From Deltaproteobacteria bacterium (GTDB lineage: Bacteria > Desulfobacterota > Binatia > UBA1149 > CAYXZP01), in the NCBI GenBank assembly GCA_046583395.1, contig JAYGCK010000079.1, positions 1 through 63,296 of the forward strand: a stretch of DNA of 63,296 nt, in the 5' to 3' direction. A model generated the notes under the pieces. That model searched no databases. It saw only the letters and a list, made by a program, of their open reading frames with translations, and was not told the DNA's origin. Each line of letters opens with the position of its first letter. The first letter of the stretch is position 1. The position numbers and the translations under genes are program-made. Positions 9,553-38,786 of the stretch are shown one piece after another.

Positions 9553-10130
9553 TCGGGCGCCTCAAGGGCCTGCTCGACGAGAAATCCCCCGGCGAGGTGC
9601 TGGTCGATGTTGGGGGGGTCGGCTATCAGGCGGCTATCCCGCTGACGACCTTCTACCGTTTGCCCGAAGCCGGCCAGGCGGTCGACCTGTTTGTTTCTAC
9701 CAACTTGCGCGAGAATGCACTCGAGCTTTTCGCTTTTGCCGACCGCAAGGACCGGGACTTGTTCAATCTCTTGCGAAGCGTGTCGGGAATCGGCCCACGT
9801 TTGGCTTTGACCGTACTTTCCGGTGTCGAAGCGCCCGAGCTGTTCGAAATAATGAACACCGAGGACCACGCCCGCCTGGTGTCGATTCCCGGCATCGGGC
9901 GTAAGACGGCCGAGCGGATGATAGTCGAGCTCAAGGACAAAATGGGCAAGGTGGACGCCGCTGCCAGCGCCGGTGCGGACGGGGCCGGGCCCGAGCGCGA
10001 TGCGGTGCTGGCCCTGGTATCTCTCGGTTATTCGCGCAAGGATTCCGAGGCCGCCGTCAAGCAGGTCCGCGGGGAGGGTGACGGTGCTCTCGAGGGCATC
10101 ATACGGCGCTCTCTGGCCAAGCTGTCATGA
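9549..10130 (+). CDS. ruvA: Holliday junction branch migration protein RuvA
   Basis: [47 protein letters not shown]. Confidence 0.97.
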
Positions 10131-11173
10131 ACGATAAGGCCGCAACCATCGAAAGCGATCCGGTAAGCCCGCTTCGTTCGCCCGACGACAGCAGCGGCGA
10201 GGCCGGGCTCAGGCCTATCACCCTTGCCGAGTACGTTGGCCAGGCGCATCTGTGCGACAATCTGTCAATCGCTATCGAAGCGGCGCGCGGACGGGGTGAG
10301 ACCCTCGACCATGTGCTGCTTTCCGGTCCGCCTGGACTGGGCAAGACCTCGATGGCCCATGTCGTGGCGACCGAACTGGGGACGGGCATTCACCAGACCA
10401 GCGGACCGGTCATAGAGAAGGCCGGCGATCTTGCGGCGATACTGACCGCGGTCGAGCGCGGTCAGGTCCTGTTCATCGACGAGATCCACCGGCTCGGGCG
10501 TATCGTCGAGGAGATTCTGTATCCGGCCATGGAGGAGTTCCGCATAGACATAGTCGTGGGCGAGGGGCCCTCGGCGCGTTCGATCTCGCTCGACCTGGAA
10601 CCCTTCACCCTGGTGGGTGCCACCACCAGGGCCGGCCTGCTGACAGCTCCGCTGCGTTCGCGATTCGGGCACGCGTTCGCCCTCGAGTATTACGAGACCG
10701 AAGAGCTGCAACGCATTGTCGAGCGCTCGGCCTCGCTTCTCGGTGTCGGGCTCGACCGCGAGGCGGCCGTCGAGATTGCCGGGCGTTCACGGGGGACCCC
10801 GCGGATAGCCAACCGTCTGCTCAGACGTTTGCGCGACTATGCGGAGGTCAAGGCCTCGGGCCGCATTACCACCGAGGTCGTAGGCTTCGGGCTCGAGATG
10901 CTGGGCGTTGATGAGGCGGGTTTCGACAACATGGACCGCCGTCTGATCTCGGCGATTATCGACAAGTTCGACGGGGGACCGGTGGGGCTCGACACCCTTG
11001 CCGCCGCGGTCGGCGAGGATGCCGGCACCCTGGAGGAGGTCTACGAGCCCTATCTTCTGCGCATCGGCTTCATCCAACGCACCGCGCGCGGGCGCGTGGC
11101 CACCCGCCATGCCTACGAACACTTCGGGCGTAAGCCGCCGGGCGACGGCACCCAGCCCGTTCTTTTCGAGTGA
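10127..11173 (+). CDS. ruvB: Holliday junction helicase RuvB
   Basis: Walker [40 protein letters not shown]. Confidence 0.98.
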
Positions 11174-13368
11174 GCGGTCTGCCCGACGACGAACGGCGGC
11201 GCCGCCGGCGAGAGGCCATGGTCATATTGGCCGCCGGTCTGGCGGTCCTGGTGTTTACCGTGTGGGAAGCGCGCCGTCCGGGCGACGAGACAGCGCTGGG
11301 CAACGTCTTCTCCTTCCTGCTGATCAACCTCAACATCGTTCTGCTGCTGGTCCTGGTCTTCCTGGTCCTACGTAACGTCGTAAAGCTCATCATCGAACGC
11401 CGGCGCCGTGTGATGGGAAGCCATCTGCGCAGCCGACTGGTCGCCGCCTTCGTGGTAATCTCGCTGTTCCCGGCCGGTGTCATGGCCCTGGTGTCCGTGC
11501 AGTTCATCAGCAACAGCATCGACGGCTGGTTCAGTGCCGAGGTCGAGTCCTCGTTGAGGGGGGCGCACCGTCTTGCCGCGACCTATTACGGTAGTTCCGC
11601 CGACCAGGCGGTTGTGCACGCGCGCGCTATCGCCGGGCGCTTGGACGGGACCGAGGACCAGTCCAGCCCGGGCACCAAGGAGATGCTCCGGGACTACCAA
11701 CAGACCTACGGAATCGGCACGGTGCAGGTGGTCGATGACCAGGGCCGCCAGGTTCTGGCCTTGTTCAACGAAAAGCTCCCGACCGGGGTCCCGGTGAGCA
11801 CCGACCTCGAGTTCATTGACGAAACACTGGAAACGGGCACAGCCACCCGCGTCGAAAGTCTCGGTACTGCCGATGTCATACGCGGCGCGGCTCCAATCCT
11901 GTCGGCCGGCGGCGGCCGGGCCGTGGTCATAGTCGATTACGTCGTCGATCCGAGTGCCAGGCTCTGGAGCCGCTCCATCCTCGATTCCTTTAGGCAGTAT
12001 CGTCAACTCGAGCTCAACAAACGGCCCTTCAAGAACCTCTATGTCCTGACCATGGGCTTGGCCACGTTGGTCGTGGTCTTTTCGGCCGCCTGGTTGGGGC
12101 TATATCTGGCCCGCGGCATCACCGGTCCGCTCGGCCGCCTGGCCGACGCGACCAACGCGGTTGCCGGGGGCAAGTGGGACGTGGAACTCCAGGAGGAGGG
12201 TGGCGACGAGGTCGGGGCGGTGGTTCGCGCGTTCAAGAGCATGACCATGCAACTCAAGGCTAGTCACGACGCCCTTGACGAACGGCGTCGTTACATCGAA
12301 GCCGTTCTTGCCAACATCGATGCCGGCGTGGTCTCGGTCGACGAGGAAGGCGTGATAACCACCGTCAACCTGGCTGCGATGACGCTGCTTTCGCTCGACC
12401 CCGCCGGTGTGGTTGGCCAGAAGGCGGAGCCCGTGTTCGATGCCTGCGGTTACGGCGAGGTCGCCGGTATGCTCACCGGGCTCGGCAGTGGAGAGACCGG
12501 CGCCAGCCTCAACGTTGAGAACGAGGCGGCCGGCCGGACCTTGGCGGTAACGGCCAGCGGTCTGGTGCGGCGTTCGGGAAAACGCAGCGGATGGATACTG
12601 TTCTTCGAGGATGTTTCGCGATTGGCCGAGGCCCAGCGCACCGAGGCCTGGAAGGAGGTCGCCCGCCGCATTGCCCACGAGATAAAGAACCCGCTTACGC
12701 CGATCCAGCTGTCGGCCCAGCGGATGGGGCGGCGCCTGGCCGGCCGTTTGCCCGCCGAGGATGCCGAGCTGGTCGAGGATTGCATCGGCACGATTATCGG
12801 AGAGGTTGACGAGCTGAAGGGACTGGTAAACGAGTTCTCCCAGTTCACTCGCAGCGGCGGCGGCGACAAGCGGGCGCAGTGTCTCAACCGGGTGGTTGAG
12901 GAGACCCTGCCGCTTTACAGGCAGGCTCACCCCGACATTGCCATGGACTTCAAGGCCGCCGCTGGCCTACCCGAAGTATTGATGAACCGGGAGGCTGTGC
13001 GCCGTGCGCTGGTAAATCTGCTCGACAACGCGGTTGCCGCTCTGGGGCCGGAGCCGGGGGTCGAGCGGCCGTCGGTCCGGCGGATTACGGTGGCCACTCG
13101 CTCGGAACAAGAACTGTCAAGGGTCATTCTCGAGGTCGCCGACACCGGCCCCGGCGTTCCGGCCGAGCAGCGCGCACGCATCTTTGAACCGTACTATTCC
13201 ACCAAGGAAGACGGCACCGGTCTCGGTCTGGCGGTGGTCGCTTCGGTGGCCCAAGACCACCAGGCCTACGTGCGGCTTCATGACAACGCACCAACCGGCA
13301 CTCGGTTCGTCATCGAGTTCCCGGTCGCGAGCGACGAAGGTGACGAGGCGCAGGCGTCACCCGCTTGA
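11170..13368 (+). CDS. ntrY: NtrY-type membrane sensor histidine kinase (TM-periplasmic-TM-HAMP-PAS-HisKA-HATPase)
   Basis: H-box [20 protein letters not shown] (NtrY signature), N-box NLLDNA, G1 DTGPG, F/G2 [16 protein letters not shown]. Multiple N-terminal TM helices and a HAMP segment ITGPLGRL...GGDEVG. Confidence 0.88.
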
Positions 13369-14651
13369 GCTATCCTATGGAGACGATGCAGAAGGTTCTG
13401 ATAGTCGACGACGATGCCGCCGTGCGCGAGACCATCGGCGGGGTGCTGAGCGACGAAGGCTTCGACATCAGTACTGCCGCCAGCGGGGAGGAGGCCCAAC
13501 GGCGGATGTCGGTCGAAACGCCCGATCTCGTGCTGGTCGATGTGTGGATGCCCGACATGGACGGGATTGAGCTTCTGTCGAGGATACGGGGGGCGGGCTC
13601 GAACATGCCCGTCATCGTTGTTTCGGGGCACGGCAGCGTCGAGCTGGCTGTCACCGCCACCCGGCTCGGCGCGGTCGATTTCATCGAGAAGCCCTTTTCG
13701 ATTGAGGGACTCCTGCAATCGGTCAACCGGGCCCTCGGCAAGGCGACCACCGGCACCGGCTCGCGGTCCGAGGTGGCGCCGGCAGACCGTCGCCGGGTAG
13801 GCGATACCGGATTGCTCGTGGCCGAACGGACGGTTGCCAGGAGTGTGACCAGTAGCGGGCTTGGTCTCCATAGCGGCCAGCGCACCGGAATCATCCTCCA
13901 CCCGCTACCGCCCGGCAGCGGAATACGTTTTGGGAGTGTGGCCGGCGAGGGTGTGGTCGAGGCCTCCGTCGACAACGTCGATTCGACCGGCTACGCGACC
14001 ACTTTGTTCAAGGACGGGACGTCGGTGCGTACCGTGGAGCATCTCATGGCTGCTTTGCATGCCTATGGGGTCACCAATCTCCTGGTCAAGGTGGAAGGGG
14101 AGGTGCCCATCCTCGACGGTTCGGCTGTTGAGCTGTGTGCGCTTCTCGACAACGCGGGCATCGAGGACCAGGGCAGCGAAACGCCGGCTGTAGCGGTGGC
14201 CGACCTGGTACGTCTGGAGCCTGGGCCCGATCAGTTCATCGAGGCCAGGCCCTATGACGGGTTGAGGATTACCTACGAGCTTGCCTACCCGGAACCTGTC
14301 GGAGAACAGACCTACTGTTTCGAGTTCGACGGGCCCGGCTCGTTCCGTTCGGAAATCGCGCCGGCCCGCACCTTCGGCTTTGTTGAAGAGATTCGTGCAC
14401 TCGAGCAGGCCGGTCTCGGGCAGGGGGGCCAGCTCGGCAACTTCATTCTCATCGGGGACAGCGGGTTCGTGAACACCGAACTACGATTTCCCGAGGAACT
14501 GGCCCGGCACAAGATTCTCGATCTGATGGGCGACCTGTACCTGCTCGGCGCTCCGCTCAAGGGGCAGTTCCATGCGCGCAAGACCGGCCATACGCACAAT
14601 GTGGAGCTGGCCCGCGCGATTCGGGATTCCTTGCTAGCGAACGGCGCTTAG
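13365..14651 (+). CDS. lpxC: Fusion of an NtrX-type response-regulator receiver domain and UDP-3-O-acyl-GlcNAc deacetylase LpxC
   Basis: aa ~8-125 are REC (VDDD, phospho-Asp59 in DVWMP, SGHG, EKPF). aa ~153-428 are LpxC (ERT, GLGLHSG, TVEHL, EVPILDGSA, ARTFGF, RHKILD, GH). One continuous frame; the start may be TTG 13365 or ATG 13377/13386. Confidence 0.92.
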   Translation: MSYPMETMQKVLIVDDDAAVRETIGGVLSDEGFDISTAASGEEAQRRMSVETPDLVLVDVWMPDMDGIELLSRIRGAGSNMPVIVVSGHGSVELAVTATRLGAVDFIEKPFSIEGLLQSVNRALGKATTGTGSRSEVAPADRRRVGDTGLLVAERTVARSVTSSGLGLHSGQRTGIILHPLPPGSGIRFGSVAGEGVVEASVDNVDSTGYATTLFKDGTSVRTVEHLMAALHAYGVTNLLVKVEGEVPILDGSAVELCALLDNAGIEDQGSETPAVAVADLVRLEPGPDQFIEARPYDGLRITYELAYPEPVGEQTYCFEFDGPGSFRSEIAPARTFGFVEEIRALEQAGLGQGGQLGNFILIGDSGFVNTELRFPEELARHKILDLMGDLYLLGAPLKGQFHARKTGHTHNVELARAIRDSLLANGA

Positions 14652-15479
14652 TTGCGGACGGCTCGCAGCCCCCGAAAGTTGGTAGTGCCGCCAGCCCTCA
14701 GGATCGGCTACGGCTTCGGGCAGGAGGCCTGCAATCATCTTGCCGCGCGGCCTTTCATCGCGGATCCGTACGGCCAGTCGTCCCTCGATCAGCAAGGACC
14801 CCGCCCGCCGGAACACCGTGGCCGCCGGAAGTCGCCATTGGATGCCTTCGGCCTCTGCCGTCGAGCCGTCAAGTACCAGGGCCGGCCCATCGAGGCTGGC
14901 CTCCAGGTCGACGGCGGAAAGCTCGAAAGCGGCTAGGGCGATCGAGCCAGGCCCGGTGCCCGAGAACCTGGCGTTACGGCCTTCAATACTGATTTTGCCT
15001 TCGCGCACGGCCGTTCCGACCGGCCCGCTGCTCTGGCCGCGGCCGATGCCGCGCAGTGCCAGCGCCCCGCCGAAACGACCTTCAAGGTGGCCATGGGACA
15101 GGACGAGGCAACGTTCGGGTTCGACGCCGGTAAAGGTCAGTCCGAAGCGACGGCCACGCTGTAGCTTGCCTCGCCACGAACCACCGCAGGCATCGCCTTC
15201 GATATCGACCCCGCCGCGCAGCCCGAAACCGAGATAGAGGGTGTCGATGCTCATGGTGTCGCTGTTGCGGGCAAGCCGGATGCCCCGCAGCAGGTAGCCC
15301 GGCGGCGACACCGACATCCGCGCAATCTTGGGCCAGCGCGGCTCCACACTTTCGATGGAGGAGGCCACGCCGGCCCTTGCCAGTGCTGTTCTTACCAGGC
15401 GTTCGACAACCAGTTTATGCGGAAAGGTCCAGACGAAGCAGACGATGGTAAGCGCCACGAACAGCGCGGGCCGCCTCAC
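14634..15479 (-). CDS. gspN: Type II secretion system protein GspN-like
   Basis: N-terminal TM ending in WTFP, last gene after gspM in a C-to-M cluster. Assigned largely by position. Confidence 0.6.
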   Translation of the reverse strand: MRRPALFVALTIVCFVWTFPHKLVVERLVRTALARAGVASSIESVEPRWPKIARMSVSPPGYLLRGIRLARNSDTMSIDTLYLGFGLRGGVDIEGDACGGSWRGKLQRGRRFGLTFTGVEPERCLVLSHGHLEGRFGGALALRGIGRGQSSGPVGTAVREGKISIEGRNARFSGTGPGSIALAAFELSAVDLEASLDGPALVLDGSTAEAEGIQWRLPAATVFRRAGSLLIEGRLAVRIRDERPRGKMIAGLLPEAVADPEGWRHYQLSGAASRPQLSAVR

Positions 15480-16027
15480 GACCCCTCCGCGCTCGAGGCA
15501 ACGGTCAGCGAGGCGTCAAAGCGGGCGCTGTCCTCGTAGCGGCGTTTGAGGTCGAGATGGAGCACCCGAATGGCCCCCTTTTGCGCTTCGATTCTTCCCA
15601 GAAGTTCGACCAGTTGGCCGAGAGAGATGCCACCTAGACGCAGGTCCACACGTGAGCCTCGCGCCCGCCGCTTGTCCGGACCCTTGTCGGGAACTATCGA
15701 CTCGACCGACCCCGGGGGCACGGTGGCAGACGTCAATCGGTCGACCAGCGCAAACAACGAGCCCTCGCCGGCGGTCACGGCCTCGCGTTTGTCGATGCGT
15801 TCCTGGATGGCCTCGATTCGCGTGGCAAGCGAGCCGATGGCCGCCATATCGCGTGTCAAGGTCGTGATGCGGCTCTCCATGGAGCCGCGCCTGGCCACCA
15901 CCGGCTCAACGACCAGCGTGTATAGTGCGGTCACGGAAATAATCGCGGTAAATGCCACCAGCAGACGCCGCTCGCGCAGGCTCAGACGCTCGAGAACGGG
16001 GAGTAGTATATCGGCCGGTGTTCGCAT
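15476..16027 (-). CDS. gspM: Type II secretion system protein GspM
   Basis: LSLRERRLL followed by a TM helix, coiled coil and ferredoxin-like C-terminus (ISLGQLVELLGRIE). Follows gspL. Confidence 0.8.
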   Translation of the reverse strand: MRTPADILLPVLERLSLRERRLLVAFTAIISVTALYTLVVEPVVARRGSMESRITTLTRDMAAIGSLATRIEAIQERIDKREAVTAGEGSLFALVDRLTSATVPPGSVESIVPDKGPDKRRARGSRVDLRLGGISLGQLVELLGRIEAQKGAIRVLHLDLKRRYEDSARFDASLTVASSAEGS

Positions 16028-17413
16028 CTAACTGTTGTGCGCTGTTCCCGGGATGGCCAGGGTAAGCTCGAGGCGAAAGTCGACACCTTCGCCGGCGATA
16101 TTGGCACGGACCTCTATGACCTCGACCGCCGAGAAGTCCCGGTGGGCGCGCAGCGCTTCTTCGAGCTTGGTCACGGCTTCGTAATCGCTACCGTGGCCGG
16201 CCAGTCGAATGGACGGAGGGTCGTATTGATAGGATTCGAGCTCGACCTTTATCTCGGCCGGCACGGTGGCCGACATCGCCACCAGGGCCGCAAGCGGGGA
16301 GGCATAGCCTGCGGTTGTCGGGTGCTGGCCTACGCGCCCTTCGAGTTCGGAGAGACGCATCTCTAGCTTTAACTTGCGGCCGCCGTGTCCGGCCGCCGAA
16401 GGCATCGCGCGGGCGGTAATCTGGTCGGCCTGCCGGATCAGGTCCGCGTGTTTGCGGCCGAGGCGTATGTGGTCGACTGCGGTGGCGGTAATCAGCAAGA
16501 GACCGGCCGCCGCCGCCCAGCGGCCCAACTGACCAAAGCCGGCCTCCTCCATGCCCGCGGCCGAGGGCGCGGCGCTGCCATGCTGGAAGGCCACCGACGG
16601 TCTTCCGCACTCGCCGCCGGCCGTTGCTACCAGCCCTAGGAGTGTAGTGTGCTCGGTCCACTGTTCGGCCAGCAGTTCGGGGGCCTCGACCGGACAGTCC
16701 CCGGCCAGGCGTTCGAGCTGGTGTCCGGCCAGGCGTGAGGACAGTTCTTCCATGCTCTCGTCGGCGGCCGGCCCGGCGCACACGACCCGTTCTATGTCGG
16801 GGGCCAACGATGCCACGGCCCACGCGACGTCGCGTGCCGTGCGCTGGCCGGAACCGGGACCGATGACCCTCAGTCCGCTGAGCACGCCTTCGCGAACGGC
16901 GGCGACGGTGGTCGATGTGGCCGAATTGTTGACGGCGATGTAGCTCGACCCTTCGGCCAAGGAACGTGAGAAGCATTCCAGCGCTGCGGTCGGGGTCCAT
17001 ACCAACTCGGCCTGTTCGATGTCCATGGCGGCCAGGCGGCGGCGAACTGAGTCGAGGCGCGTGCGCGGAGCTATCACGGCCAGAATCTGGCCGTGGTGGC
17101 CGGGGCTTGTGCGGTCCCAGGCGGTTTCGCCGTCTTCGAGCGAAAACGGGACGTGGTCCTCGAGGGCCACCCCTGCGGTCCGTTTGATGCGTCTTTTGTC
17201 GTTGAACGGGAGTTCCAGGAAACGGAAGGCCGCTGCGCCGGCTGCCAATCCCACCGTTACACGGTCCCAACGCGTACCACCCAACGTGCCCGCGAACTCG
17301 CTGTCATCGAGTTCGTGTATCTCGCTGATGCTGAAGCGCCTCAGGGTCGATTCGACCACCGCGGCGCGAAGCCCATCAGTGCCGAGTTCGAGCGCTAGGA
17401 CGCGTCCGGCCAT
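16028..17413 (-). CDS. gspL: Type II secretion system protein GspL (actin-like cytoplasmic domain, TM, PilN-like periplasmic domain)
   Basis: VLALELGTDGLRAA, FLELPFNDKRRIK...LEDHVPF, a late TM helix. Lies between gspK and gspM. Confidence 0.8.
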   Translation of the reverse strand: MAGRVLALELGTDGLRAAVVESTLRRFSISEIHELDDSEFAGTLGGTRWDRVTVGLAAGAAAFRFLELPFNDKRRIKRTAGVALEDHVPFSLEDGETAWDRTSPGHHGQILAVIAPRTRLDSVRRRLAAMDIEQAELVWTPTAALECFSRSLAEGSSYIAVNNSATSTTVAAVREGVLSGLRVIGPGSGQRTARDVAWAVASLAPDIERVVCAGPAADESMEELSSRLAGHQLERLAGDCPVEAPELLAEQWTEHTTLLGLVATAGGECGRPSVAFQHGSAAPSAAGMEEAGFGQLGRWAAAAGLLLITATAVDHIRLGRKHADLIRQADQITARAMPSAAGHGGRKLKLEMRLSELEGRVGQHPTTAGYASPLAALVAMSATVPAEIKVELESYQYDPPSIRLAGHGSDYEAVTKLEEALRAHRDFSAVEVIEVRANIAGEGVDFRLELTLAIPGTAHNS

Positions 17414-18411
17414 GACAGTTCGTTAAGGCGGGTCGGCACCGACGTGTCAACGCCGGCTATCGTCGGAACGTTTCGTTCGAGCCTGTAAACGGTGCGGCTT
17501 TTGCCATTCTCGCGAGTGACCAGGGCCTCGAGCGAACGGTGGATGCCGTCGATAGAACCCACCGTTCTGACGCGAAAGTACTTGCTCGAATAGCCGACCA
17601 GGGATGCAATCGGGACTTCGGCCAGCCCCGGGATGCTTTCTAGGTCGGCTCGCCCACTAATCGCGCGCCGGGCCCGGCGTTCGAGCAAACGGCCTATCAA
17701 ACGCTCGTCCTCCATGCGCGGATGGAGAGCGCGCAGCACCTTCTCAGGGGCCGTGTTGATGTTTATCCGCCGTTCACCGGCGGGCAGGACTGCGGCGACC
17801 TTGGCCAGTTTGAGCAGTTGCTTTGGGCCCAAGCCGCGTACCAGCACCGATTCACGTAGGGTCAGCATCGGCGCGTTGCGCGGCGCGTATGGCGGCACGG
17901 TGTCGCGGTATTGGGGAGCTTCGGCGCCTTCGGGACCAAAGCGGACCTTGGAGTCGGCATCGATCCAGTCGGCCAGCGGAGCGACGAGACGGGGGTCCAC
18001 GCCGGCCAGTTCGAGTAGGCGTGCGAACCTTGCGGTCTCGCCGGCCGAGGCGCTACGCAGGCGGTTGATGTTGTAACGGCCCTGCTCGTCATCGATGCGG
18101 ATGGCCAGCAGTCCGCCTCCTGGAGCCTCTATCGGAGGAAAGGGCAGGGCCCAGGGCTCGGTCAGCGCGTCGGTCTTGCCGGCACGCGCATCGAGTTCCA
18201 AGAGGACCTCGGCCAGCACCAGTCCTGACTCGGCCAGACCGGCAGCCCTGCGGGCCTTGAGCCAGTGGGCGGCACGGCGATGGTCGACCTGGACTTCATA
18301 GGTGAACTGAACGACCAGGATGGTCAGCAGCGCCACAGCCATCAGCGTGATGACCAGGGCCACACCCCGTTCGCCGTTCCTGGCGCCGATGGTCGCCGGT
18401 CCTTCAGTCAT
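17395..18411 (-). CDS. gspK: Minor pseudopilin GspK
   Basis: RGVALVITL, DEQGRYNINRL, LADWIDAD, RININTA, SKYFRV. Likely ATG at 18411. Confidence 0.9.
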   Translation of the reverse strand: MTEGPATIGARNGERGVALVITLMAVALLTILVVQFTYEVQVDHRRAAHWLKARRAAGLAESGLVLAEVLLELDARAGKTDALTEPWALPFPPIEAPGGGLLAIRIDDEQGRYNINRLRSASAGETARFARLLELAGVDPRLVAPLADWIDADSKVRFGPEGAEAPQYRDTVPPYAPRNAPMLTLRESVLVRGLGPKQLLKLAKVAAVLPAGERRININTAPEKVLRALHPRMEDERLIGRLLERRARRAISGRADLESIPGLAEVPIASLVGYSSKYFRVRTVGSIDGIHRSLEALVTRENGKSRTVYRLERNVPTIAGVDTSVPTRLNELSWPDAS

Positions 18412-19087
18412 GGGCCAGTGCCGGTATTTGGGTGGAACTTGACAGCACAAGAGGCTCGCCGCCGAGCTTGTCGGTGAACCCCAGCCGGATCTCTGCGGCC
18501 TCCGGTGCCCGCCGTTGGGCTGCTTGCCCGGCCCAGCGGGCTTGCCAGCGCTTGCCGTCGAAGAAACGTATTTCGAGCCAGCCCAGCCCCGATGCCACGA
18601 CGGTCCGAACGCTGCTGTCGTCGTCGATGGGTCCGGGGGGGCGGCGTTCGTAGCGAATCAGGTCCATGCCGTCCGAACCGGTGGCCAGGCGGTAGGCCAC
18701 GCGAGCCTGGTCGGCGCGGTCGTCGGGCGGGAGCGGCCCCAGGCCCTCGACCGGTGTCGTCCCGCGTGCGCTAAGAAGGGTCAGGTCGAGGACGGTGGTC
18801 TCCGCGTCCGCCGCAATGGTCGAGTTGGCGCTGATGTCGGCCCAAAAGCGGGGCATGGCCGCGGGCAGGTTGCCGGTGGCAAAGCTGCCACGCAGGTCGC
18901 GTTCCAGCCAAGAAAAGGCTGAACGCGCCTCGGCGAACACCTCGGCACGCGCCAGCGCATGGTCGCGCGCGGCCGCAGTGCGGGCGAAGCTGCCGTAGAC
19001 TATCGCGGTTACCACGGCCAGCACCGAGACGGCCACCATCAGTTCGACCAGCGACATGCCGGCCTGGCCACGCCACCGCCCGTTCAC
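18404..19087 (-). CDS. gspJ: Minor pseudopilin GspJ
   Basis: Prepilin motif G|MSLVELMVA, then LERDL, and C-terminal EIRFFDG...W...W...PEAAEI. Confidence 0.85.
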   Translation of the reverse strand: MNGRWRGQAGMSLVELMVAVSVLAVVTAIVYGSFARTAAARDHALARAEVFAEARSAFSWLERDLRGSFATGNLPAAMPRFWADISANSTIAADAETTVLDLTLLSARGTTPVEGLGPLPPDDRADQARVAYRLATGSDGMDLIRYERRPPGPIDDDSSVRTVVASGLGWLEIRFFDGKRWQARWAGQAAQRRAPEAAEIRLGFTDKLGGEPLVLSSSTQIPALAHD

Positions 19088-29109: not shown

Positions 29110-29809
29110 CGGCAGCTCCCGGGCTGAACCTGCGGTGCTCGAAGCGCGAGGGATTGGCCGGCGTTTTGGGCACAATCCCCCGCTCGTGGTCCTGGGCGGC
29201 CTCGACCTCACAGTGGAGGGGGGGCAGAGCGTGGCCGTATTGGGCGAGTCGGGGGTGGGCAAGAGCACCCTGCTGCACGTGCTTGCCGCCATTGATCCGG
29301 CCGACGAGGGTGATGTTCTCGTCGAGGGCCGCTCCCTATCCGAAATGACGGGTTCGGAACTGGCCCATATGCGCAGCCGCTCGATAGGACTGATCTTTCA
29401 GTTCCACAATTTGCTTGGCGATTTTGACGCGGTCGAGAACGTGATGCTGCCGTTGCTGGTCGGCGGCCAGGGGCGTGCTGTTGCGCGCCGGCGGGCCCTG
29501 GAGGCCCTCGATCAGGTCGGTCTTAGCGAGCGGATGTCGCACCGTCCTGGCCAGCTCTCGGGCGGCGAACAACAACGCGTGGCGGTGGCCCGCGCGGTGG
29601 CCGTCCGCCCCCGGCTGCTCCTGGCCGATGAGCCCACCGGGAACCTCGACCCGGCCTCGGCCGCGAGGGTGCACGAACTGCTCCTTGAGGTGCAGGCCGA
29701 ACTGGCCTGTGCGCTGGTGGTGGCCACACACAGCACGGCTCTGGCCGGCCTCATGCAACGCTCGCTGCGTCTGGCCGGCGGCCGTCTTTCCGAAGAGGCT
29801 TCTGCGTGA
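29102..29809 (+). CDS. lolD: Lipoprotein-releasing ABC transporter ATP-binding protein
   Basis: Walker [40 protein letters not shown] at 29102. Confidence 0.93.
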
Positions 29810-32127
29810 GGCGGGGCTTGGTATTGGCCGTACTTGCGGTCCTTGCCGCGCCCCTCGTTGCCGAGGCCGGCCGTTCGGTTGCCAAGGTCCGCTTGGAGGG
29901 CAATTCCCGGGTCGAGGCTGCGGCTATCCGCGTGCACATCGGTCAGCCCACCGGTGCTCCACTCGACGAGGACCGCATCGACCGCGATATCAAGGCCATC
30001 TACGGCATGGGCTTTTTTGACGACGTCTGGGTCAGCACCAAGCCTTCGCCGCAGGGCCCGGTGCTCGTTTATCACGTAAAAGAACGTCCCTACGTGACGG
30101 GTATCGAGTTCGAGGGTATCGACAAGGTTATCCGTGAGGACGTCGAAGCGGTCATCAACGTTCGCGAACGGAACGTATTCGATCCCCGGCAGGCTTGACT
30201 GGGCATCCAGCAGGCGCGCAAGCTCTACACCAGCGAGGGTTATCCCGACGCATCTATCGAGTACGAGCTACGGCCGGGCGAGGACAACACCGCCGAGATT
30301 GTCTACTCGATCGAAGAGGGTCCGTTGGTTCGCGTGGCCGACATACGTTTGGAGGGGGTTCGCGTCTTCAAGCAGCGGGCGCTTCGCAAGCTCATGACCA
30401 CACGCAGCGAATGGATGTTGTCGTGGCTTACCGGGGCCGGGCTGCTCAACGAGGACGAACTTGCCACCGACGTTGAGCGCCTTACCGCCTACTATTACGA
30501 TAACGGTTACATTCATGTCCGGGTCGACGAGCCTTTCATCGAACGGGTCGACGACGGAATGGTGGTCACCATCCGTATCGAGGAGGGGCCGCTCTTCAAG
30601 ATTGGAGAGATAACCTTTGCCGGCCAACTCCTGCTCCCCGAAGACCGGCTGCTGGCCATAAGCCGGCTTACGGCGGGCGGCGTGTTTAGGGCCAGCGAGT
30701 TGCGCGAGGCGATATTCGCCTTGACCGAGGCATACGGGGACCTGGGCCACGCCTTTGCCGATGTGGTTCCCGGCACCCGGGTACGGGCCGAGGACGAAGA
30801 GGTCGATATCGCGTTCGAATTCGACGGCGGCCCCGTTGTCGCCGTTCGCCGCATTGAGATACGCGGCAACACCAAGACCCGTGACCATGTCGTTCGCCGC
30901 GCACTGCGACTGCAGGAGGGGCAGCGCTTTTCCGGGTCGGGACTGACCCGCTCGAAGGTCCGCATACAGCGAAGCGGCCACTTTGAAACGGTCGAACTTT
31001 CGACCAAACGGACCGGGACCGAAGACGAGGTCGACCTGCTGGTCGAAGTCAAGGAGGGCCGGACCGGCTCCTTTTCGGCCGGCGCGGGCTACAGTTCGGA
31101 CGACGAGGTGTTGTTCAATGCGCGAATCGCCGAGCGCAATCTGTTCGGTCGTGGACAGTCGCTGGTCGTTAACACCGACATGGGCACGATACGGCAGAAC
31201 TTCCAGTTCTCCTTCACCGAACCCTGGTTCGGCGGCCGCCCGCTCAGCCTCGGCTTCGACCTGTTCGACTGGCAGTTGGAGTTCGACCGCTTTGTGCGTG
31301 GTGGCCGCGGCTTTGCCGTGCGGCTGTCCTACCCGCTCGAGGAACTGGGGCTGTACCGGCTCGCCCGCCTGTCGCTGCGCGATGTGCGGGCAGGCATAGA
31401 ATATCGCCTCGAGGAGAGCGAGATTGACGGCATCCGGCGGGCGGCCCCACCGAGCGTTAAAGCGGAGGAGGGCGCGCGGATGACCAGCAGCGTGAAGCCG
31501 GTCATCACCCGCAACACGCTCGACCATCCCTTCGACCCTACCCGGGGGTCGCGGCAGATTCTGTCGGCCGAGTTTGCCGGGCTGGGCGGCGATACCGACT
31601 TTCTTAAAATAGAGGCCAGCAGCCGCTGGTTCTGGCCAGTCTATGCGACCAAGGCCGGCCGCCGCTTGGTCCATTCGCTGGGTGTCCGGCTGGGGTTCGG
31701 GCTCGGCGATAGCGGGGCCAGCGGGGAAGAGCTGCCGTTGTTTAAGCGCTATTTCCCGGGCGGGATTAACTCGGTTCGGGGCTACGATACTCGCAGCCTC
31801 GGCCCCGAGGAGGAATTTCGCGAAGACGACGGGGTCAGCTACGTCAAAGAGGCGATAGGGGGAAGCCAGCAGCTCATCATTACCAACGAGCTCATATTTC
31901 CGGTCCTGGCCGATGCCGGGCTCAAGGCCGTAGTGTTTGTAGATGCCGGCAACGCGTTCACCGCATCGGGCGGTATAGACCTAGGGGACCTCAGGTACGC
32001 CGCGGGTTGGGGCATACGTTGGTTGTCACCAATGGGACCGCTGCGTATAGAGGTGGGCTACCCGCTCGACCCCAAGGACGGCGAGGACTCGAGTATCGTC
32101 CAGTTCTCTCTGGGTGCACCGTTCTGA
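29806..32127 (+). CDS. bamA: Outer membrane protein assembly factor BamA, interrupted by one in-frame TGA at 30196-30198
   Basis: Track ORFs 29806-30198 and 30325-32127 are in the same frame, and the sequence between them is open ([15 protein letters not shown]). Signal peptide, POTRA repeats ([12 protein letters not shown]), NLFGRGQ, VRGY loop-6 motif, terminal Phe. 773 codons in total. Confidence 0.93.
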
Positions 32128-32141
32128 AAAAGGGAGACCGT

Positions 32142-32675
32142 ATGAGAAAGACCGCCGCTTCGATTCTGACGCTGTTTGTTCTTGCCGCATTGCCGGTGGC
32201 CGGGGCGTCAGCCGCCGATCTCAATATAGGCTATATAATGGTTCCCCGCTTGCTTGCCGAGACCAAGTTTGGTCAGGCCGCAGCCCGGGAACTGCAAGGC
32301 AAGAAAGCATCGATGCAGAAGGAGCTCGATAGTAAACTGGCCGAGATCAAGGACTTTGAGGCCGATGTGCGCAAACGTGCGACCGTGTTGAGCGAACAGG
32401 AGCGCAAACGCGCGGCCGAAGAGCTTGAACGGCAGATGCGCGAGGCCAAGCGTCTTCAGGAGGATTTCCAACTCAGCCTGCAGCGCACCGAGACTGCCGT
32501 TATGGGCCGCTTTAACCGCCAATTCCAGAAAATCATCCGTGCCTATGGTGCCGACAAGAACTACGACCTTGTGCTCGACTATTCGGTCCTGCTTTACGCG
32601 TCCTCGACGCCTGATATCACCGATGCCGTGATTGCCGAGGCGGACAAAGCCTTCGAAGCAGGGGAGGGCCGCTAG
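32142..32675 (+). CDS. skp: Periplasmic chaperone Skp/OmpH
   Basis: Signal peptide, coiled-coil body, C-terminal YDLVLD...LLYA...DITDAVI. AGGGAG SD before ATG 32142. Confidence 0.9.
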   Translation: MRKTAASILTLFVLAALPVAGASAADLNIGYIMVPRLLAETKFGQAAARELQGKKASMQKELDSKLAEIKDFEADVRKRATVLSEQERKRAAEELERQMREAKRLQEDFQLSLQRTETAVMGRFNRQFQKIIRAYGADKNYDLVLDYSVLLYASSTPDITDAVIAEADKAFEAGEGR

Positions 32676-32678
32676 CTC

Positions 32679-33458
32679 TTGGCCGACGGCATCCACGCGA
32701 CCGCAATCATCTCCAAGGAGGCCCGGCTCGCTCGGGATGTGAGAGTGGGCCCCTATTCCGTTGTAGGGGCCGGGGTCGAGATTGGGGCCGGCTGCTCGTT
32801 GGGCTCACAGGTGACCGTTGAAGGCCCGACCAGTATCGGCGAGAATAACAGCATCTTCCAGTTCGCGAGTATCGGTGCGCCGCCCCAGGACCTCAAGTAC
32901 GCCGGTGAGGACACCCGCCTGGAGATCGGCACGGGCAATACGATTCGGGAGTTCGCTACACTCAACCGTGGGACCGTTGGGGGAGGTGGGACGACGCGGG
33001 TCGGAGATAACTGCCTGTTGATGGCCTACTCGCACGTCGCCCATGACTGCACGCTCGGTGACGGTGTGGTTATGGCCAATGCTGCCACCTTGGCCGGCCA
33101 CGTGACGATAGAGGACTACGGCATAGTTGGTGGTCTTGCCGCTATCCACCAGCATGTCAGGATAGGGAGTTCGGCCATTCTTGGCGGCGGCGCGATGGTC
33201 AGTCTTGACGTTCCGCCTTTCTGCATGGCTGCGGGGGACAGGGCTCGTCTCCAGGGACTCAACGTTGTCGGGCTCAAGCGGCGCGGCCTCTCCAGGGATT
33301 CGATACGTAAGTTGCGCAAGGCCTACCGCACTCTGTTCCAATCCTCTCTCAGGCTCAGCGATGCCGTGGCCGAGCTTGCCCACGACCGCAGCTCGAGTTC
33401 GGAGGTTGGCCAGCTCCTCGACTTCGTCGAGTCCTCCGAGCGTGGGATCTGTCGCTGA
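32679..33458 (+). CDS. lpxA: UDP-N-acetylglucosamine acyltransferase
   Basis: IHATAII, hexapeptide repeats, PQDLKY, IREFATLNRGT, HVAHDC, HQHVRIG, GLNVVGLKRRG. Confidence 0.96.
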   Translation: MADGIHATAIISKEARLARDVRVGPYSVVGAGVEIGAGCSLGSQVTVEGPTSIGENNSIFQFASIGAPPQDLKYAGEDTRLEIGTGNTIREFATLNRGTVGGGGTTRVGDNCLLMAYSHVAHDCTLGDGVVMANAATLAGHVTIEDYGIVGGLAAIHQHVRIGSSAILGGGAMVSLDVPPFCMAAGDRARLQGLNVVGLKRRGLSRDSIRKLRKAYRTLFQSSLRLSDAVAELAHDRSSSSEVGQLLDFVESSERGICR

Positions 33459-33471
33459 GGACGGATGCCTG

Positions 33472-34281
33472 ATGGAACTTATCGGTCTCATCGCCGGTAA
33501 CGGTGGTTTCCCGCTGACCTTTGCGCGAGAGGCTCGTAGGCGGGGGTTTCGCGTGGCGGCCGTTGCCCACCACGACGAGACCGATCCGGCGCTCGAGGCC
33601 GAGGTTGACTCGGTCACTTGGGTGCGAGTCGGCCAGCTCGGCAAGCTCATCGGTGCGCTCAAGGCCGGCGGTGTCGAGCGTACGGTCATGGCTGGCGGCA
33701 TCAACAAGGCCCGCTCGCTGCTTTCGCTCCGGCCCGATGCCCGTGGGGCCAAGGCGCTGGCCCGTGCCGCGGTGCTCGGTGATGATAATATTCTTCGCGC
33801 GGTAGCCGACGAGATCGAGCAGGAGGGAATCTCCGTGATTCCCTCGACGATTTTTCTCGAGAGCCTTCTAGCTCCCGCCGGTCCCATCGCGGGTCCGGCA
33901 CCGAGTCCCGAGGCGCTCGAGGATGTGAACCGTGGTTTTGAACTACTCACCGTGCTCGGTCCCCACGACGTTGGCCAGGGTGTGATGTTGGAGTCCGGGG
34001 CCGTGCTGGCCATAGAGGCCGTAGAGGGAACCGATGCGATGATTTGCCGTGGCGCGGCGTTCGCCAAGGGCCAAGCCGTGGTGGTCAAGGCGGCCAAAGC
34101 GGGCCAGGACATGCGCTTTGATGTTCCTGCGGTGGGTCCGCAAACCCTGGCGGCGATGTCCGAGTCCGGTGCCGGCACATTGGCCATCGAGACCGGCAGC
34201 AGCATCATTCTTGACCGCGCGGCCTTCGACCAACAGGCCGCCGGGCTAGGGATAGCCGTGATAGGCGTTACAAATGACTGA
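33472..34281 (+). CDS. lpxI: UDP-2,3-diacylglucosamine pyrophosphatase LpxI (DUF1009)
   Basis: IGLIAGNGGFP, VRVGQLG, DVGQ, AIEAVEGTD, KAGQDMRFDVPAVG. ATG at 33472. Confidence 0.9.
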   Translation: MELIGLIAGNGGFPLTFAREARRRGFRVAAVAHHDETDPALEAEVDSVTWVRVGQLGKLIGALKAGGVERTVMAGGINKARSLLSLRPDARGAKALARAAVLGDDNILRAVADEIEQEGISVIPSTIFLESLLAPAGPIAGPAPSPEALEDVNRGFELLTVLGPHDVGQGVMLESGAVLAIEAVEGTDAMICRGAAFAKGQAVVVKAAKAGQDMRFDVPAVGPQTLAAMSESGAGTLAIETGSSIILDRAAFDQQAAGLGIAVIGVTND

Positions 34282-35218
34282 ACGCTTGCGTGTCGGGGTC
34301 ATCGGGGTTGGCCATCTCGGACGGCTCCACGCCGAGAAGTATCACGCCCACGGCGGCGTCGAACTTGTCGGTGTCTATGACAGTGACCGACAACGGGCCG
34401 CCGAGGTGGCGGCCGCACAGGAATGCCGGGCGCCGGAAACGTTGGATTCCCTGCTCGCCGGTGTAGATGCGGTCAGTATTGCGGTGCCGACTGCGGCTCA
34501 TCTGGAAACCGGACTGAGGGTGGCCGCCGCGGGCGTCGATATGCTGATGGAAAAGCCCATGGCGGCCGGTTCAATCGAGGCCAAACGCTTGGCCGATGCC
34601 GCGGCCGGGAAGGGGGCCTTGGTGCAGGTCGGCCATCTTGAACGCTTCAACCCGGTGTTCGACGAGATGCGCGCGCTGGTCTCGGAGCCGAAGTTCATCG
34701 AATGCCATCGTCTGTCGCCCTTTGCGGGGCGTGGCGATGACACCAACGTTGTCTATGATGTGATGATTCATGACCTCGACATCATTTCCTTGCTGGCCGG
34801 CGCCGCTGTCGAAAGTGTTGATGCTATTGGCGTGCCGGTGCTAAGCGAGCACGCTGACATCGCCAACGCACGGCTACGGATGCAGGGCGGTTGCACGGCC
34901 AACGTGACCGCGAGCCGTGTGTCGTTAAAGCGGGAACGAAAGATGCGCATATTTCAGGAGGACGCCTACGTCTCTCTCGACTTCGATTTGCGCAACATGG
35001 TGATGGCCCGCCGTGACCCCGGGGCCGCCGGGCCGGACCCGATGTCGGCGATTTCCATCGAAGAGCGTGACCTCGAGGACGGCGACCCGCTGGCCCGCCA
35101 GATCGCGGCTTTCATAGAGTGCGTCGTTACCCGACGGCCGCCCGCTGTCGGACCGGCCGAAGGCATCGCGGCCCTCGAGCTTGCCGACCGGGTGTTGGCT
35201 GCGATGGGGGCTCCCTGA
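34274..35218 (+). CDS. Gfo/Idh/MocA oxidoreductase, GnnA-like (UDP-GlcNAc 3-dehydrogenase candidate)
   Basis: GVIGVGHLG Rossmann motif, EKPM, VGHLERFNP, DVMIHDLD. Its position between lpxA/lpxI and lpxB is the characteristic gnnA position. Confidence 0.75.
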   Translation: MTERLRVGVIGVGHLGRLHAEKYHAHGGVELVGVYDSDRQRAAEVAAAQECRAPETLDSLLAGVDAVSIAVPTAAHLETGLRVAAAGVDMLMEKPMAAGSIEAKRLADAAAGKGALVQVGHLERFNPVFDEMRALVSEPKFIECHRLSPFAGRGDDTNVVYDVMIHDLDIISLLAGAAVESVDAIGVPVLSEHADIANARLRMQGGCTANVTASRVSLKRERKMRIFQEDAYVSLDFDLRNMVMARRDPGAAGPDPMSAISIEERDLEDGDPLARQIAAFIECVVTRRPPAVGPAEGIAALELADRVLAAMGAP

Positions 35219-35222
35219 GCCC

Positions 35223-36350
35223 TTGGCGGGCCGCCGCGTAATGATGGTCGCCGGAGAGGCCTCCGGCGATGCGCAGGCGGCCAAGCTGGCCGCTGCCATG
35301 CACAAGCGCGACCCAAACCTCGAAATTTTCGGGGTAGGGGGTCCGGCCATGCGCCGTGCGGGCGTAGATACCCGATTCGATTCGACGGAGCTGTCCATCA
35401 TGGGCTTTACCGAGGCGCTTGGCGCCCTGGCCCGGGTCAGACGCTGCTATCGCCATCTCAAGGAAACGCTTCGCGGCCCCGGCCGTCCCGACCTTCTCGT
35501 GTTGATCGATTTTCCCGACTTCAACATACCCTTGGCCGGCGTTGCGAGCCGGACCGCAGTTCCGGTGCTCTACTATGTTGGGCCGCAGGTCTGGGCATGG
35601 CGCCGTGGGCGGATTGCCAAGCTGGCACGCCGGATCGACCGAATGATAGTGGTCTTTCCCTTCGAGGCCGAGCTGTACCGGGCACGGGGCATGGACGCGC
35701 ACTTCGTCGGCAATCCGCTCGCCGAGGACGTCAGGCCCAGCGGCCGTGAGGGCGCACTGGCCGGCCTTGGGACCGATGACGAACGTCCCCTGGTTGCGTT
35801 GCTGCCCGGCAGCCGCCGTAAGGAGGTCACCCGGGTCTTACCGGTCATGCTCGAGGCCGCCCGAGCGCTCGAGGACCGGGCCCGCTTTGCCATTGCCGCC
35901 GCCCCAGGCCTCGACCGGAGACTTCTCGAAGCTCTGGTCGGGCACAGTGGCGTGGAAGCGCCTATAATAGGGGGGGAGACATACGACCTGGTCGCGGCCA
36001 GCCGGGCGGTCGCGGTGACCTCGGGTACGGCGACCGTCGAGTGTGCGCTGCTGGGCACGCCGATGGTGGTGCTCTACCGGATGTCCGCGCTTTCCTACTT
36101 GGTGGCGCGTAGCCTGATCGATGTTCCCCATATGGCGATGCCCAACATCATTCTCGAGGAAAGAGCGGTTCCCGAGCTGTTACAGGGAGAGCTGACCGCC
36201 GACCGCCTCTGCGCCGAGTTGAGCCGTCTTCTCGAGGGCGGACCGGCGATTGACCGTTTGCGTGAGAAATTGGCCACCGTGCGCGACCGCCTGGTGCGCC
36301 CCGGGGCCGCCGCCGAGGCGGCCCGCCTGGCCTTGGAGTTGCTGCCGTGA
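35223..36350 (+). CDS. lpxB: Lipid-A-disaccharide synthase
   Basis: VAGEASGD, IDFPDFN, YYVGPQVWAWR, FPFE, LLPGSRRKE, SGTATVE, MPNII, VPELLQ. Likely TTG start at 35223. Confidence 0.96.
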   Translation: MAGRRVMMVAGEASGDAQAAKLAAAMHKRDPNLEIFGVGGPAMRRAGVDTRFDSTELSIMGFTEALGALARVRRCYRHLKETLRGPGRPDLLVLIDFPDFNIPLAGVASRTAVPVLYYVGPQVWAWRRGRIAKLARRIDRMIVVFPFEAELYRARGMDAHFVGNPLAEDVRPSGREGALAGLGTDDERPLVALLPGSRRKEVTRVLPVMLEAARALEDRARFAIAAAPGLDRRLLEALVGHSGVEAPIIGGETYDLVAASRAVAVTSGTATVECALLGTPMVVLYRMSALSYLVARSLIDVPHMAMPNIILEERAVPELLQGELTADRLCAELSRLLEGGPAIDRLREKLATVRDRLVRPGAAAEAARLALELLP

Positions 36351-38083: not shown

Positions 38084-38093
38084 GCCGGCGGAT

Positions 38094-38786
38094 ATGCTGA
38101 GGCGACTGCGACGCAACGCGCGCTTTGCGCGGGCCGAGATAGCCGTGCTCGGCTCTTTGGCGCTGGGCCTGATGCGTTTTCTCAGGATGACGACCCGGAT
38201 GACCGTGCACAACGGCGAAGTTCTCGAGGAAAACTGGCGGCGCGGCCGCGCGATGGTCTTCGTGAGCTGGCACGGCCGTTCGATCATGTTGCCGTTCACG
38301 TATCGGGGGCACAGTGTTCACATACTCAACAGCACCCATCGTGACGGCCAGATTATCACGCGCGCTCTACTGCGACTGGGCATGAAGACCTCGCCGGGTT
38401 CGTCGACCCGGCGTGCGATAGCCGGTACCCTCGGTCTGGTCCGCGCGCTGGCCGCCGGCGGCGATGTCGCACTTGTTACCGACGGGCCCCGCGGTCCGGC
38501 CGGCGTGGCCAAGCCCGGTGCGGTCGAGTTGGCGATGAGGGCAGGGGCGCCGGTCGTGCCCATGGCCTTTAGCGCCAGACCGGCGCTGCGCTTGAGCGGG
38601 TGGGACCGGATGATGCTCCCGGTCCCGGGCGGCAAGGTCGTCTGTGTGGTCGGTGAACCGATAGAGGTCGGCAAGGGCCGCGACCCGGTCCTGCGCGAGT
38701 CCTTGCGTGCCGAGGTCGAGCGAAGACTGGCCGAGCTGTGCCGCCACGCCGACCGGCTTGCCGGTAGACCCGAAGAGCCGGTATGA
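38094..38786 (+). CDS. DUF374 lysophospholipid-acyltransferase-family protein (LpxJ-like late lipid A acyltransferase candidate)
   Basis: SWHG, STHRDG, GSSTR, VTDGPRGP...KPG, WDRMMLP. Lies between msbA and waaA; ATG at 38094. Confidence 0.75.
   Translation: MLRRLRRNARFARAEIAVLGSLALGLMRFLRMTTRMTVHNGEVLEENWRRGRAMVFVSWHGRSIMLPFTYRGHSVHILNSTHRDGQIITRALLRLGMKTSPGSSTRRAIAGTLGLVRALAAGGDVALVTDGPRGPAGVAKPGAVELAMRAGAPVVPMAFSARPALRLSGWDRMMLPVPGGKVVCVVGEPIEVGKGRDPVLRESLRAEVERRLAELCRHADRLAGRPEEPV

Follow-up and report, generated by a model that had tools for sequence, protein, structure and literature searches.

A receiver domain joined to the sole LpxC of a Binatia bacterium, and the NtrY-type kinase encoded beside it: a candidate two-component pair with an enzyme as output

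What might a membrane sensor kinase control when the gene that follows it encodes a receiver (REC) domain joined to LpxC? LpxC, a major target for antibiotics, commits the cell to lipid A synthesis, a step that is usually essential. So far it is known to be controlled through regulated proteolysis, by a protein activator and at the level of transcription. The question is raised by contig JAYGCK010000079.1 of assembly GCA_046583395.1, from a Deltaproteobacteria bacterium (Binatia; UBA1149; CAYXZP01); its 63,296 nucleotides are called the window here. Listing and translation of its open reading frames (ORFs) gave two co-directional frames, an NtrY-type kinase at 11170-13368 (+) and a REC-LpxC fusion at 13365-14651 (+). 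Judged by their sequences, the two are likely to form a two-component pair with an enzyme as its output, in which LpxC would be set by the phosphorylation state of the receiver. The anatomy of the proteins, their intact residues, the linkage of the genes and the evolutionary series to which they belong are matters of observation.

The kinase and the REC-LpxC fusion

The two genes and their parts are as follows, all on the + strand.

11170-13368, +: NtrY-type sensor histidine kinase, 732 amino acids (Pfam, hydropathy, motifs)
11494-12042, +: predicted periplasmic sensor loop of the kinase, residues about 109-291 (hydropathy; topology inferred)
12652-12861, +: DHp (HisKA) domain of the kinase, with the phospho-accepting His503 at 12676-12678 (Pfam and motifs)
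13365-13368, +: TTGA, the kinase stop overlapping an in-frame TTG (read from the sequence)
13386-14651, +: REC-LpxC fusion gene, 421 amino acids from the ATG, the start favoured by homology; alternatives ATG 13377 and TTG 13365
13395-13724, +: NtrX-type receiver domain (Pfam Response_reg, 110 bits; structure match; signature)
13746-13826, +: low-complexity linker between REC and LpxC (AlphaFold2 confidence; comparison with long forms)
13827-14621, +: predicted LpxC deacetylase domain (Pfam LpxC, 272 bits; catalytic and zinc residues intact)

Residues of the fusion are numbered from the ATG at 13386. Its Pfam matches were Response_reg (110 bits) and LpxC (272 bits, profile positions 2-266 of 268) and nothing else, and it is the sole LpxC of a genome that is 98.7% complete. 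The phospho-acceptor aspartate is D52 (codon 13539-13541). In 65 fused homologues, diverged down to 40% identity, D52 is invariant together with the acidic pair D8 and D9 and with K102, and S80 is nearly so. The LpxC residues E218, H219, T329, H375, K376, D379, D383 and H402 are invariant in the same set, and the motifs TVEHL, HKILDxxGD and GH are all present. We take E218, H219, H375, D379 and H402 to be the equivalents of E78, H79, H238, D242 and H265 of Escherichia coli LpxC. Over its whole length the LpxC part can be aligned with Pseudomonas aeruginosa LpxC (4fw3, E = 1e-48), and the zinc ligands (His, His and Asp) and the catalytic Glu and His of the fused enzyme are intact.

The best match of the receiver among solved structures was the REC domain of Brucella NtrX (4d6x/5m7n, E = 5e-26). 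It carries an NtrX signature (DEG, D[IV]W.P, SGHG and DF[IL]EKP) that is absent from the nine other receivers of the genome and common to all three kinds of receiver considered here, namely those of separate NtrX proteins, of long NtrX-LpxC fusions and of REC-LpxC. In a receiver tree it grouped with NtrX receivers (support 96/91), apart from eight of those nine.

The central AAA+ module is absent from the window fusion, and a disordered linker of about 25 residues stands in its place, at the position where sister lineages have a degenerate AAA+ module with or without a helix-turn-helix (HTH) domain. Pfam found no HTH_8 domain in the window fusion; one is present in the regulator of unfused relatives. 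An AlphaFold2 model of the fusion had a mean predicted local distance difference test (pLDDT) of 88 and a predicted template-modelling score (pTM) of 0.88, with pLDDT below 50 at residues 121-138 and mostly above 90 in the LpxC domain. So high a pTM despite a disordered linker is a weak hint that the receiver docks on LpxC through a defined interface.

Pfam assigned to the kinase an NtrY_N domain (residues 18-177; 29.8 bits against a cut-off of 23.2), followed by HAMP (313-363), PAS (376-482), HisKA (495-564) and HATPase_c (607-720), these four also above their cut-offs. The H-box AHEIKNP contains His503, and the N-box (DNA at 619), G1 box (DTGPG at 658) and G2 box (GTGLGL at 682) could all be located. 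Hydropathy indicated hydrophobic segments at 16-34, 49-67, 90-108 and 292-310. Because there are four transmembrane segments and a positively charged N-terminus, the loop of about 180 residues between the third and fourth (109-291) should be periplasmic. Pfam, motifs and hydropathy thus agree with a preliminary description of this DNA, made from the sequence alone, in which the kinase was credited with an intact H-box and ATP boxes, a periplasmic region, HAMP and PAS. HExxN is the phosphatase motif of HisKA kinases; as HEIKN fits it, the kinase is probably bifunctional, as family knowledge would suggest.

At the junction of the genes (13360-13369, cccgcTTGAg) the TGA that closes the kinase gene (13366-13368) overlaps a TTG at 13365 in the frame of the fusion; started there, the fusion would have 428 residues, compared with 421 from ATG 13386. 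The overlap, on which the preliminary description had based translational coupling, is real, but TTG is doubtful as the true start. The N-terminus M-x-K-[IV]L[IV]VDD is common to all orthologues and puts their start three to five residues ahead of the first beta-strand, a pattern that fits ATG 13386 (MQKVLIVDDD) or ATG 13377 in the window. In a relative of the same genus TTGA is replaced by CTGA, and the ATGs at +8 and +17 are both kept. ATG 13377 or 13386 therefore seems at least as likely a start as TTG 13365. The overlap should nevertheless not be dismissed as irrelevant, given that an in-frame ATGA or GTGA overlap occurs at the same site in five of 12 relatives of the class, in one of which (L010) it is the sole possible start. 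The gap between kinase and fusion ranges from -4 to +38 nucleotides across the loci of 12 relatives, and from -4 to +17 in the window according to the start chosen. No well-spaced ribosome-binding site could be read from the sequence for any candidate fusion start in the window. Tight translational coupling is plausible whichever start is used.

Probable partnership of kinase and receiver

Within the class to which the window belongs, 38 of 41 genomes have the kinase gene and REC-LpxC side by side on one strand, with the kinase gene first. Two of the remaining three are too fragmented to judge, and the third (G007) has the fusion and no NtrY. The linkage has been kept despite class-wide divergence, to 41-81% identity for the kinase and 47-81% for the fusion, and each relative in the class gave a single LpxC match.

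The window's own genome encodes about nine kinases, among which the NtrY-type kinase is single copy, and 10 receiver proteins, among which signature and tree comparison identified no second NtrX-type receiver. Its three sigma-54 activators all have non-NtrX receivers; two adjoin their own kinases and the third (C125:21714-23120) has no adjacent kinase. A Pfam scan of the genes neighbouring the kinase-fusion pair found no AAA+/HTH regulator, as had been reported in the preliminary description. That description had also treated kinase and receiver as cognate partners in a pathway lacking a transcription factor. The partnership is supported by the linkage in 38 of 41 genomes, the one NtrY per genome and the NtrX-like character of the receiver, all of which are properties of the sequences; a pathway lacking a transcription factor is supported by the want of another NtrX-type receiver in the genome and by the receivers of the sigma-54 activators.

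The comparison was widened to a sample of 201 genomes of the phylum. Short REC-LpxC fusions were found in about 34 of them and long forms in 14, and the NtrY-type kinase is single copy in 183. The long forms (685-795 amino acids) consist of REC, a sigma-54-type AAA+ module, an AAA lid and, in most, an HTH domain, followed by LpxC. Directly upstream of the fusion gene lies ntrY in six of the 14 genomes with the long form, and in one of the 14 outside the class with the short form. Exactly one NtrY-type kinase was nonetheless present in 42 of a set of 43 genomes (42 from other classes, together with G007 of the window's order), the exception being G007, which has none. The 17 unlinked kinase loci that were read are all free of receiver genes to a distance of about 3.5 kb from the kinase. 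As fusion and ntrY co-occur one to one, each lacking an adjoining partner, these genomes support the pairing. The preliminary description had held that REC-LpxC genes unlinked to ntrY would speak against a partnership; such genes do exist in other classes, but the partnership stands in view of the co-occurrence.

Within the window's order, NtrY went undetected only in G007 (locus L051, G007:C185). The LpxC domain of its fusion is ordinary, while the receiver has a long branch and evolves fast, SGHG is changed to SEPA, and there is an insertion after alpha-2. Such changes in a receiver whose kinase is missing are what co-dependence predicts.

Helix alpha-1 of the kinase DHp domain, which starts AW[RK], is nearly invariant in the NtrY kinases of the phylum, whether the partner is NtrX, NtrX-LpxC or REC-LpxC. 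A test of kinase-receiver covariation was abandoned, as DHp alpha-1 and receiver alpha-1 are almost invariant across the partner types and leave nothing to covary.

The probable ancestral lpxC circuit and origin of the fusion

In genomes with an unfused lpxC, the order lpxC, usually DUF4390, ntrY and a gene for a REC-AAA+-HTH_8 regulator was found at 10 of 18 kinase loci. The Walker A, GAFTGA and Walker B motifs, the arginine-finger region and HTH_8 of this regulator are all intact and, by its sequence, the unfused NtrX regulator is a working sigma-54 activator. Upstream regions were searched for a -24/-12 element (TGGCAY-N5-TTGC, at most two mismatches, GG and GC fixed). Of 33 loci with an unfused lpxC, 30 had a match 25-140 nucleotides ahead of the gene (11 of 13 linked to ntrY and 19 of 20 unlinked), against a background of 0.2 per kb per strand, at which fewer than one match would be expected in total. 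Upstream of 33 fused genes there were just two weak matches. The 30 loci lead us to predict that unfused lpxC is sigma-54-dependent across the phylum.

A circuit of this kind has been described in Desulfovibrio vulgaris, where lpxC is the one binding target mapped for the sigma-54 regulator DVU2934, encoded in one operon with the kinase DVU2931 (PMC3333781). The orthologous operon of Syntrophobacter fumaroxidans has lpxC immediately ahead of it (PMC3333781). From gene layout and target, not sequence, DVU2934 is probably the counterpart of the unfused NtrX-type regulator. In alphaproteobacteria, too, lpxC transcript levels are under the control of NtrYX (PMC7240162, PMC12444477).

The preliminary description had supposed an ancestral order ntrY-ntrX-lpxC. 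This has to be revised, since synteny in the unfused sister lineages is lpxC-(DUF4390)-ntrY-ntrX. What precedes ntrY in the unfused relatives is DUF4390, or lpxC and DUF4390, instead of the ruvB string of the window. A tblastn search of the window genome with two DUF4390 proteins from relatives gave no match at E <= 1. In two unfused relatives ntrX is followed by a gene for a Ser/Thr protein kinase with PEGA domains (family f15; L058 7504-9339).

The AAA+ module of the long fusions has lost GAFTGA and the Walker B acidic pair (DE), and its arginine-finger region is deleted; two long fusions (family f68) additionally lack the HTH domain. The long architecture is shared by more than 120 protein clusters, annotated 'NtrX' or 'LpxC' in public databases, where members carry the NCBI submitter labels Binatia, Deltaproteobacteria or Desulfobacterota/Thermodesulfobacteriota. 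A suspicion that open frames of 700-830 amino acids were high-GC artefacts was rejected, as they proved to be real REC-AAA+-LpxC genes; frames of 1000 amino acids or more in high-GC genomes are artefacts. An apparent fusion with an insert in L099, a 'Nitrospira sp.' metagenome-assembled genome (MAG), is really a separate NarL-type regulator gene followed by lpxC. At that locus (L099 2393-5435) a HisKA_3 kinase and a NarL/GerE-type regulator, of another two-component family and another phylum, are encoded directly upstream of an unfused lpxC. A wider scan of named genomes with the REC-LpxC alignment used patterns that lay mostly in LpxC, and nearly all of the 80 matches listed were ordinary LpxC from many phyla; among those listed there was one further full-length fusion, in the 1.09-Mb chromosome of a 'Deltaproteobacteria' MAG (L072).

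In a maximum likelihood tree of 46 LpxC domains, fused and unfused, from the same phylum, all fused domains, short and long, fell on one side of a branch with support of 100/100. Long and short forms are interleaved within the fused clade, the f68 long forms joining the f14/f70 short forms at 88/83, and the tree implies two changes for the long form and three for the short form outside the class. The backbone of the clade is poorly supported and the count was made on this LpxC tree rather than on a species tree, so the number of deletions is rough. An AAA+ module is not likely to have been regained at one and the same site, and the simplest reading of the sequences is a single NtrX::LpxC fusion, followed by decay of AAA+ and HTH and by at least two to three independent deletions. 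The preliminary description had likewise derived the fusion by loss of the AAA+/HTH part, and this is borne out by sister lineages with REC-AAA+-HTH-LpxC proteins whose AAA+ is decayed and by the single clade of fused LpxC domains. The forms make up a series, from unfused lpxC preceded by a sigma-54 element and often adjoining DUF4390-ntrY-ntrX, through ntrY with an NtrX::LpxC whose AAA+ is dead and the same protein without HTH, to REC::LpxC. Control of lpxC, once the task of a dedicated transcriptional circuit, has probably been reduced to two proteins acting post-translationally. A tandem duplication of lpxC-ntrY-ntrX with loss of the outer copies would account for the transfer of lpxC from a site ahead of ntrY to the 3' end of ntrX, but this is speculation.

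In one genome, G074, the gene immediately ahead of ntrY is an unfused lpxC whose sigma-54 promoter is perfect, and no ntrX follows the kinase (L050, G074:C33); elsewhere the genome has a very divergent REC-LpxC (L023, G074:C11; end branch 1.55). G074 may represent an intermediate, or hold a paralogue acquiring a new function.

Predicted working of the pair, its surroundings and its relation to known systems

We propose that a signal in the periplasm or membrane is sensed by the NtrY-type membrane kinase, which would then determine the phosphorylation of Asp52 in the receiver attached to the only LpxC of the cell, and that this state would alter LpxC output post-translationally. The likeliest route would be docking and undocking of the receiver, or dimerisation, affecting catalysis. 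In the ancestor, NtrY would have phosphorylated a sigma-54 activator (REC-AAA+-HTH) that switched on the sigma-54 promoter ahead of lpxC; the regulator would then have been fused to its own target enzyme, and AAA+ and HTH would have decayed and been deleted, leaving REC-LpxC. Sigma-54 activators only turn genes on. Since the ancestral regulator was of this type, the ancestral logic would have been 'kinase on, more LpxC', and we lean weakly towards the phosphorylated receiver favouring LpxC activity. In alphaproteobacteria the sign at the level of the lpxC transcript is the opposite (PMC7240162, PMC12444477).

The receiver might instead govern the amount of LpxC, phosphorylation exposing or hiding a degradation signal or recruiting FtsH, Lon or ClpXP. 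LpxC is under regulated proteolysis in E. coli and probably also in some alphaproteobacteria (PMC12444477), and the long, disordered linker would suit a protease entry site. However, the fusion gave no sequence evidence of a degron, linked adaptor or protease genes are absent from the pair's loci in the 41 class genomes, and the modelled pTM of 0.88 fits a docked receiver better than a free tag; we regard control by degradation as unlikely. A somewhat smaller chance attaches to the receiver being a leftover with no regulatory role, or one phosphorylated by small-molecule donors or by another kinase, with the adjacency to ntrY an inherited gene order. The separation of fusion and ntrY in most other classes would fit this, as would the ability of PlrR, the Bordetella homologue of NtrX, to take phosphate from another donor (PMC13001219). 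Yet the phospho-acceptor pocket is invariant in the 65 homologues, for all their divergence to 40% identity, and adjacency with gaps of -4 to +38 nucleotides has been retained across the whole class. A useless domain of 120 residues on an essential enzyme would be expected to go or to decay, as the AAA+ module did, and the one genome without NtrY, G007, is the one with the long-branched receiver and the SGHG to SEPA change.

Least probable of all, and in our estimate very improbable, is a reverse flow of information, in which the LpxC domain would report substrate or product occupancy and the fusion would act as a phosphate sink or modulator of NtrY towards some other output. Single-domain and enzyme-linked receivers can act as phosphate sinks elsewhere, and the sigma-54 activator that has no adjacent kinase (C125:21714-23120) could be imagined as that output. 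The receiver of this activator is not NtrX-like, though, the genome holds no second NtrX-type receiver, and lpxC was the target, not an input, of the ancestral circuit.

Several points weigh against control of LpxC by the kinase through the fused receiver. Phosphotransfer from kinase to receiver, an effect on LpxC catalysis and the sign of that effect are inferred from the sequences. The AlphaFold2 model came with no map of domain-placement error, and the REC-LpxC interface in it is a weak hint. The tree of receivers, built on 116 columns, is weak and places one long-branch paralogue within the fused clade. In most other classes fusion and kinase are not adjacent (13 of 14 short and eight of 14 long forms), and pairing there would follow from co-occurrence and conserved specificity regions only; covariation of specificity residues has no power, as the DHp and receiver alpha-1 regions hardly vary. 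For the ancestral circuit, orthology of DVU2931/DVU2934 to the NtrY/NtrX-type pair is presumed, not drawn from sequence comparison.

The surroundings of the pair include the following genes.

10127-11173, +: ruvB, the end of a yebC-ruvA-ruvB string (Pfam RuvB_N, AAA_lid_4, RuvB_C)
15476-18450, -: gspM, gspL and gspK (type II secretion), convergent with the fusion gene (Pfam T2SSM, GspL_C/PilN, T2SSK)
32007-40075, +: skp, lpxA, lpxI, an oxidoreductase gene, lpxB, an msbA-like ABC exporter gene, DUF374 and kdtA (Pfam)

The ruvB stop and the GTG start of the kinase overlap as GTGA (11170-11173), and given this overlap yebC, ruvA, ruvB, ntrY and REC-lpxC form a single closely packed string on one strand. 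An ORF of 281 amino acids with no Pfam match (14634-15479, -) is convergent with the fusion gene and overlaps its 3' end by 18 nucleotides; lying just after gspM, it may be a further secretion-system gene or no gene at all. In an unfused relative the type II secretion gene gspC (L054 8297-9184, Pfam T2SSC) comes after ntrX, and the window fusion adjoins gspK/L/M; the ntrY locus may have kept its position beside a secretion cluster.

With bamA, which precedes skp, the lipid A and outer-membrane cluster spans 29806-40075; its lipid A genes, which come after bamA and skp, lie 18 kb downstream of the fusion. Its Pfam matches include OmpH, Acetyltransf_11/Hexapep, LpxI_N/C, LpxB, ABC_membrane with ABC_tran, and Glycos_transf_N. 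The cluster encodes lpxI, not lpxH, and its oxidoreductase is of the GFO/IDH/MocA type; neither lpxD nor fabZ was seen between skp and lpxA (window 29806-40075). The presence of the remaining lipid A pathway genes in the window indicates that the organism makes lipid A.

If the proposal is true, a receiver fused to the only LpxC of a cell, beside its kinase, would add a further mode of LpxC control, that of the enzyme directly by a two-component system. The relatives supply an unusually complete record of a regulator fused to the product of its own target and then deprived of its transcription machinery, and that record gives the widespread, poorly understood NtrY/NtrX family a concrete ancestral target in this phylum, lpxC. 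A wider idea, which we hold as possible though doubtful, is that NtrY-family kinases are at root sensors of lipid A and outer-membrane homeostasis, whose regulator was welded to LpxC in about a quarter of the sampled genomes so that the periplasmic domain of NtrY would read a signal from the envelope or related to lipopolysaccharide and gate LpxC directly by phosphorylation. If so, a two-protein feedback loop independent of proteolysis would take the part that YejM-LapB-FtsH plays in E. coli. As a 'Rosetta stone', the fusion would imply a functional, and perhaps physical, coupling of NtrX and LpxC even where the two are separate, and this might explain why phosphorylated NtrX is essential in some proteobacteria. 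A full-text literature search found no description of a REC-LpxC or NtrX-LpxC architecture, and a 2025 review of lipid A regulation presents NtrYX only as a transcriptional regulator of lpxC, with no mention of a fused-receiver mechanism; the words 'receiver', 'fusion' and 'fused' do not occur in it.

Among the closest known systems are NtrY/NtrX of Brucella, Rhodobacter (Cereibacter) sphaeroides and Caulobacter and PlrS/PlrR of Bordetella, whose kinases have the same layout of NtrY_N, HAMP, PAS, HisKA and HATPase. In R. sphaeroides and Caulobacter both the amount of lpxC transcript and the composition of the envelope are under NtrYX control (PMC7240162, PMC12444477). Unlike NtrX, the partner described here lacks AAA+ and HTH and is joined to LpxC, so that its predicted output is an enzyme and not transcription. 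A third component of these systems, DUF4390/PlrP (PMC13001219), is encoded ahead of ntrY in many relatives and was undetected in the window genome. DVU2931-DVU2934 of D. vulgaris Hildenborough is a kinase and a sigma-54-type regulator with lpxC as single mapped target (Rajeev et al. 2011, PMC3333781). Together with the position of lpxC in S. fumaroxidans, it matches the lpxC-ntrY-ntrX order and the sigma-54 promoters of the unfused relatives, to whose NtrY/NtrX-type pair it is presumed to be orthologous, but differs from the window pair in exerting transcriptional control through separate proteins.

Receivers are likewise covalently joined to enzymes in the methylesterase CheB, the diguanylate cyclases PleD and WspR and the HD-GYP protein RpfG. 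In these, phosphorylation shifts activity by relieving occlusion or by driving dimerisation. LpxC, unlike them, is not a signalling enzyme. Post-translational control of LpxC is known from E. coli, where it takes the form of FtsH/LapB/YejM proteolysis, and from P. aeruginosa, where MurA activates the enzyme. Those systems act by proteolysis or through a protein partner, whereas control here would be exerted by a membrane kinase through a phosphorylated, fused receiver. A response regulator with an enzymatic output is thus of a known kind; what the sequences suggest to be new is LpxC as that output and, with it, a new mode of LpxC control.

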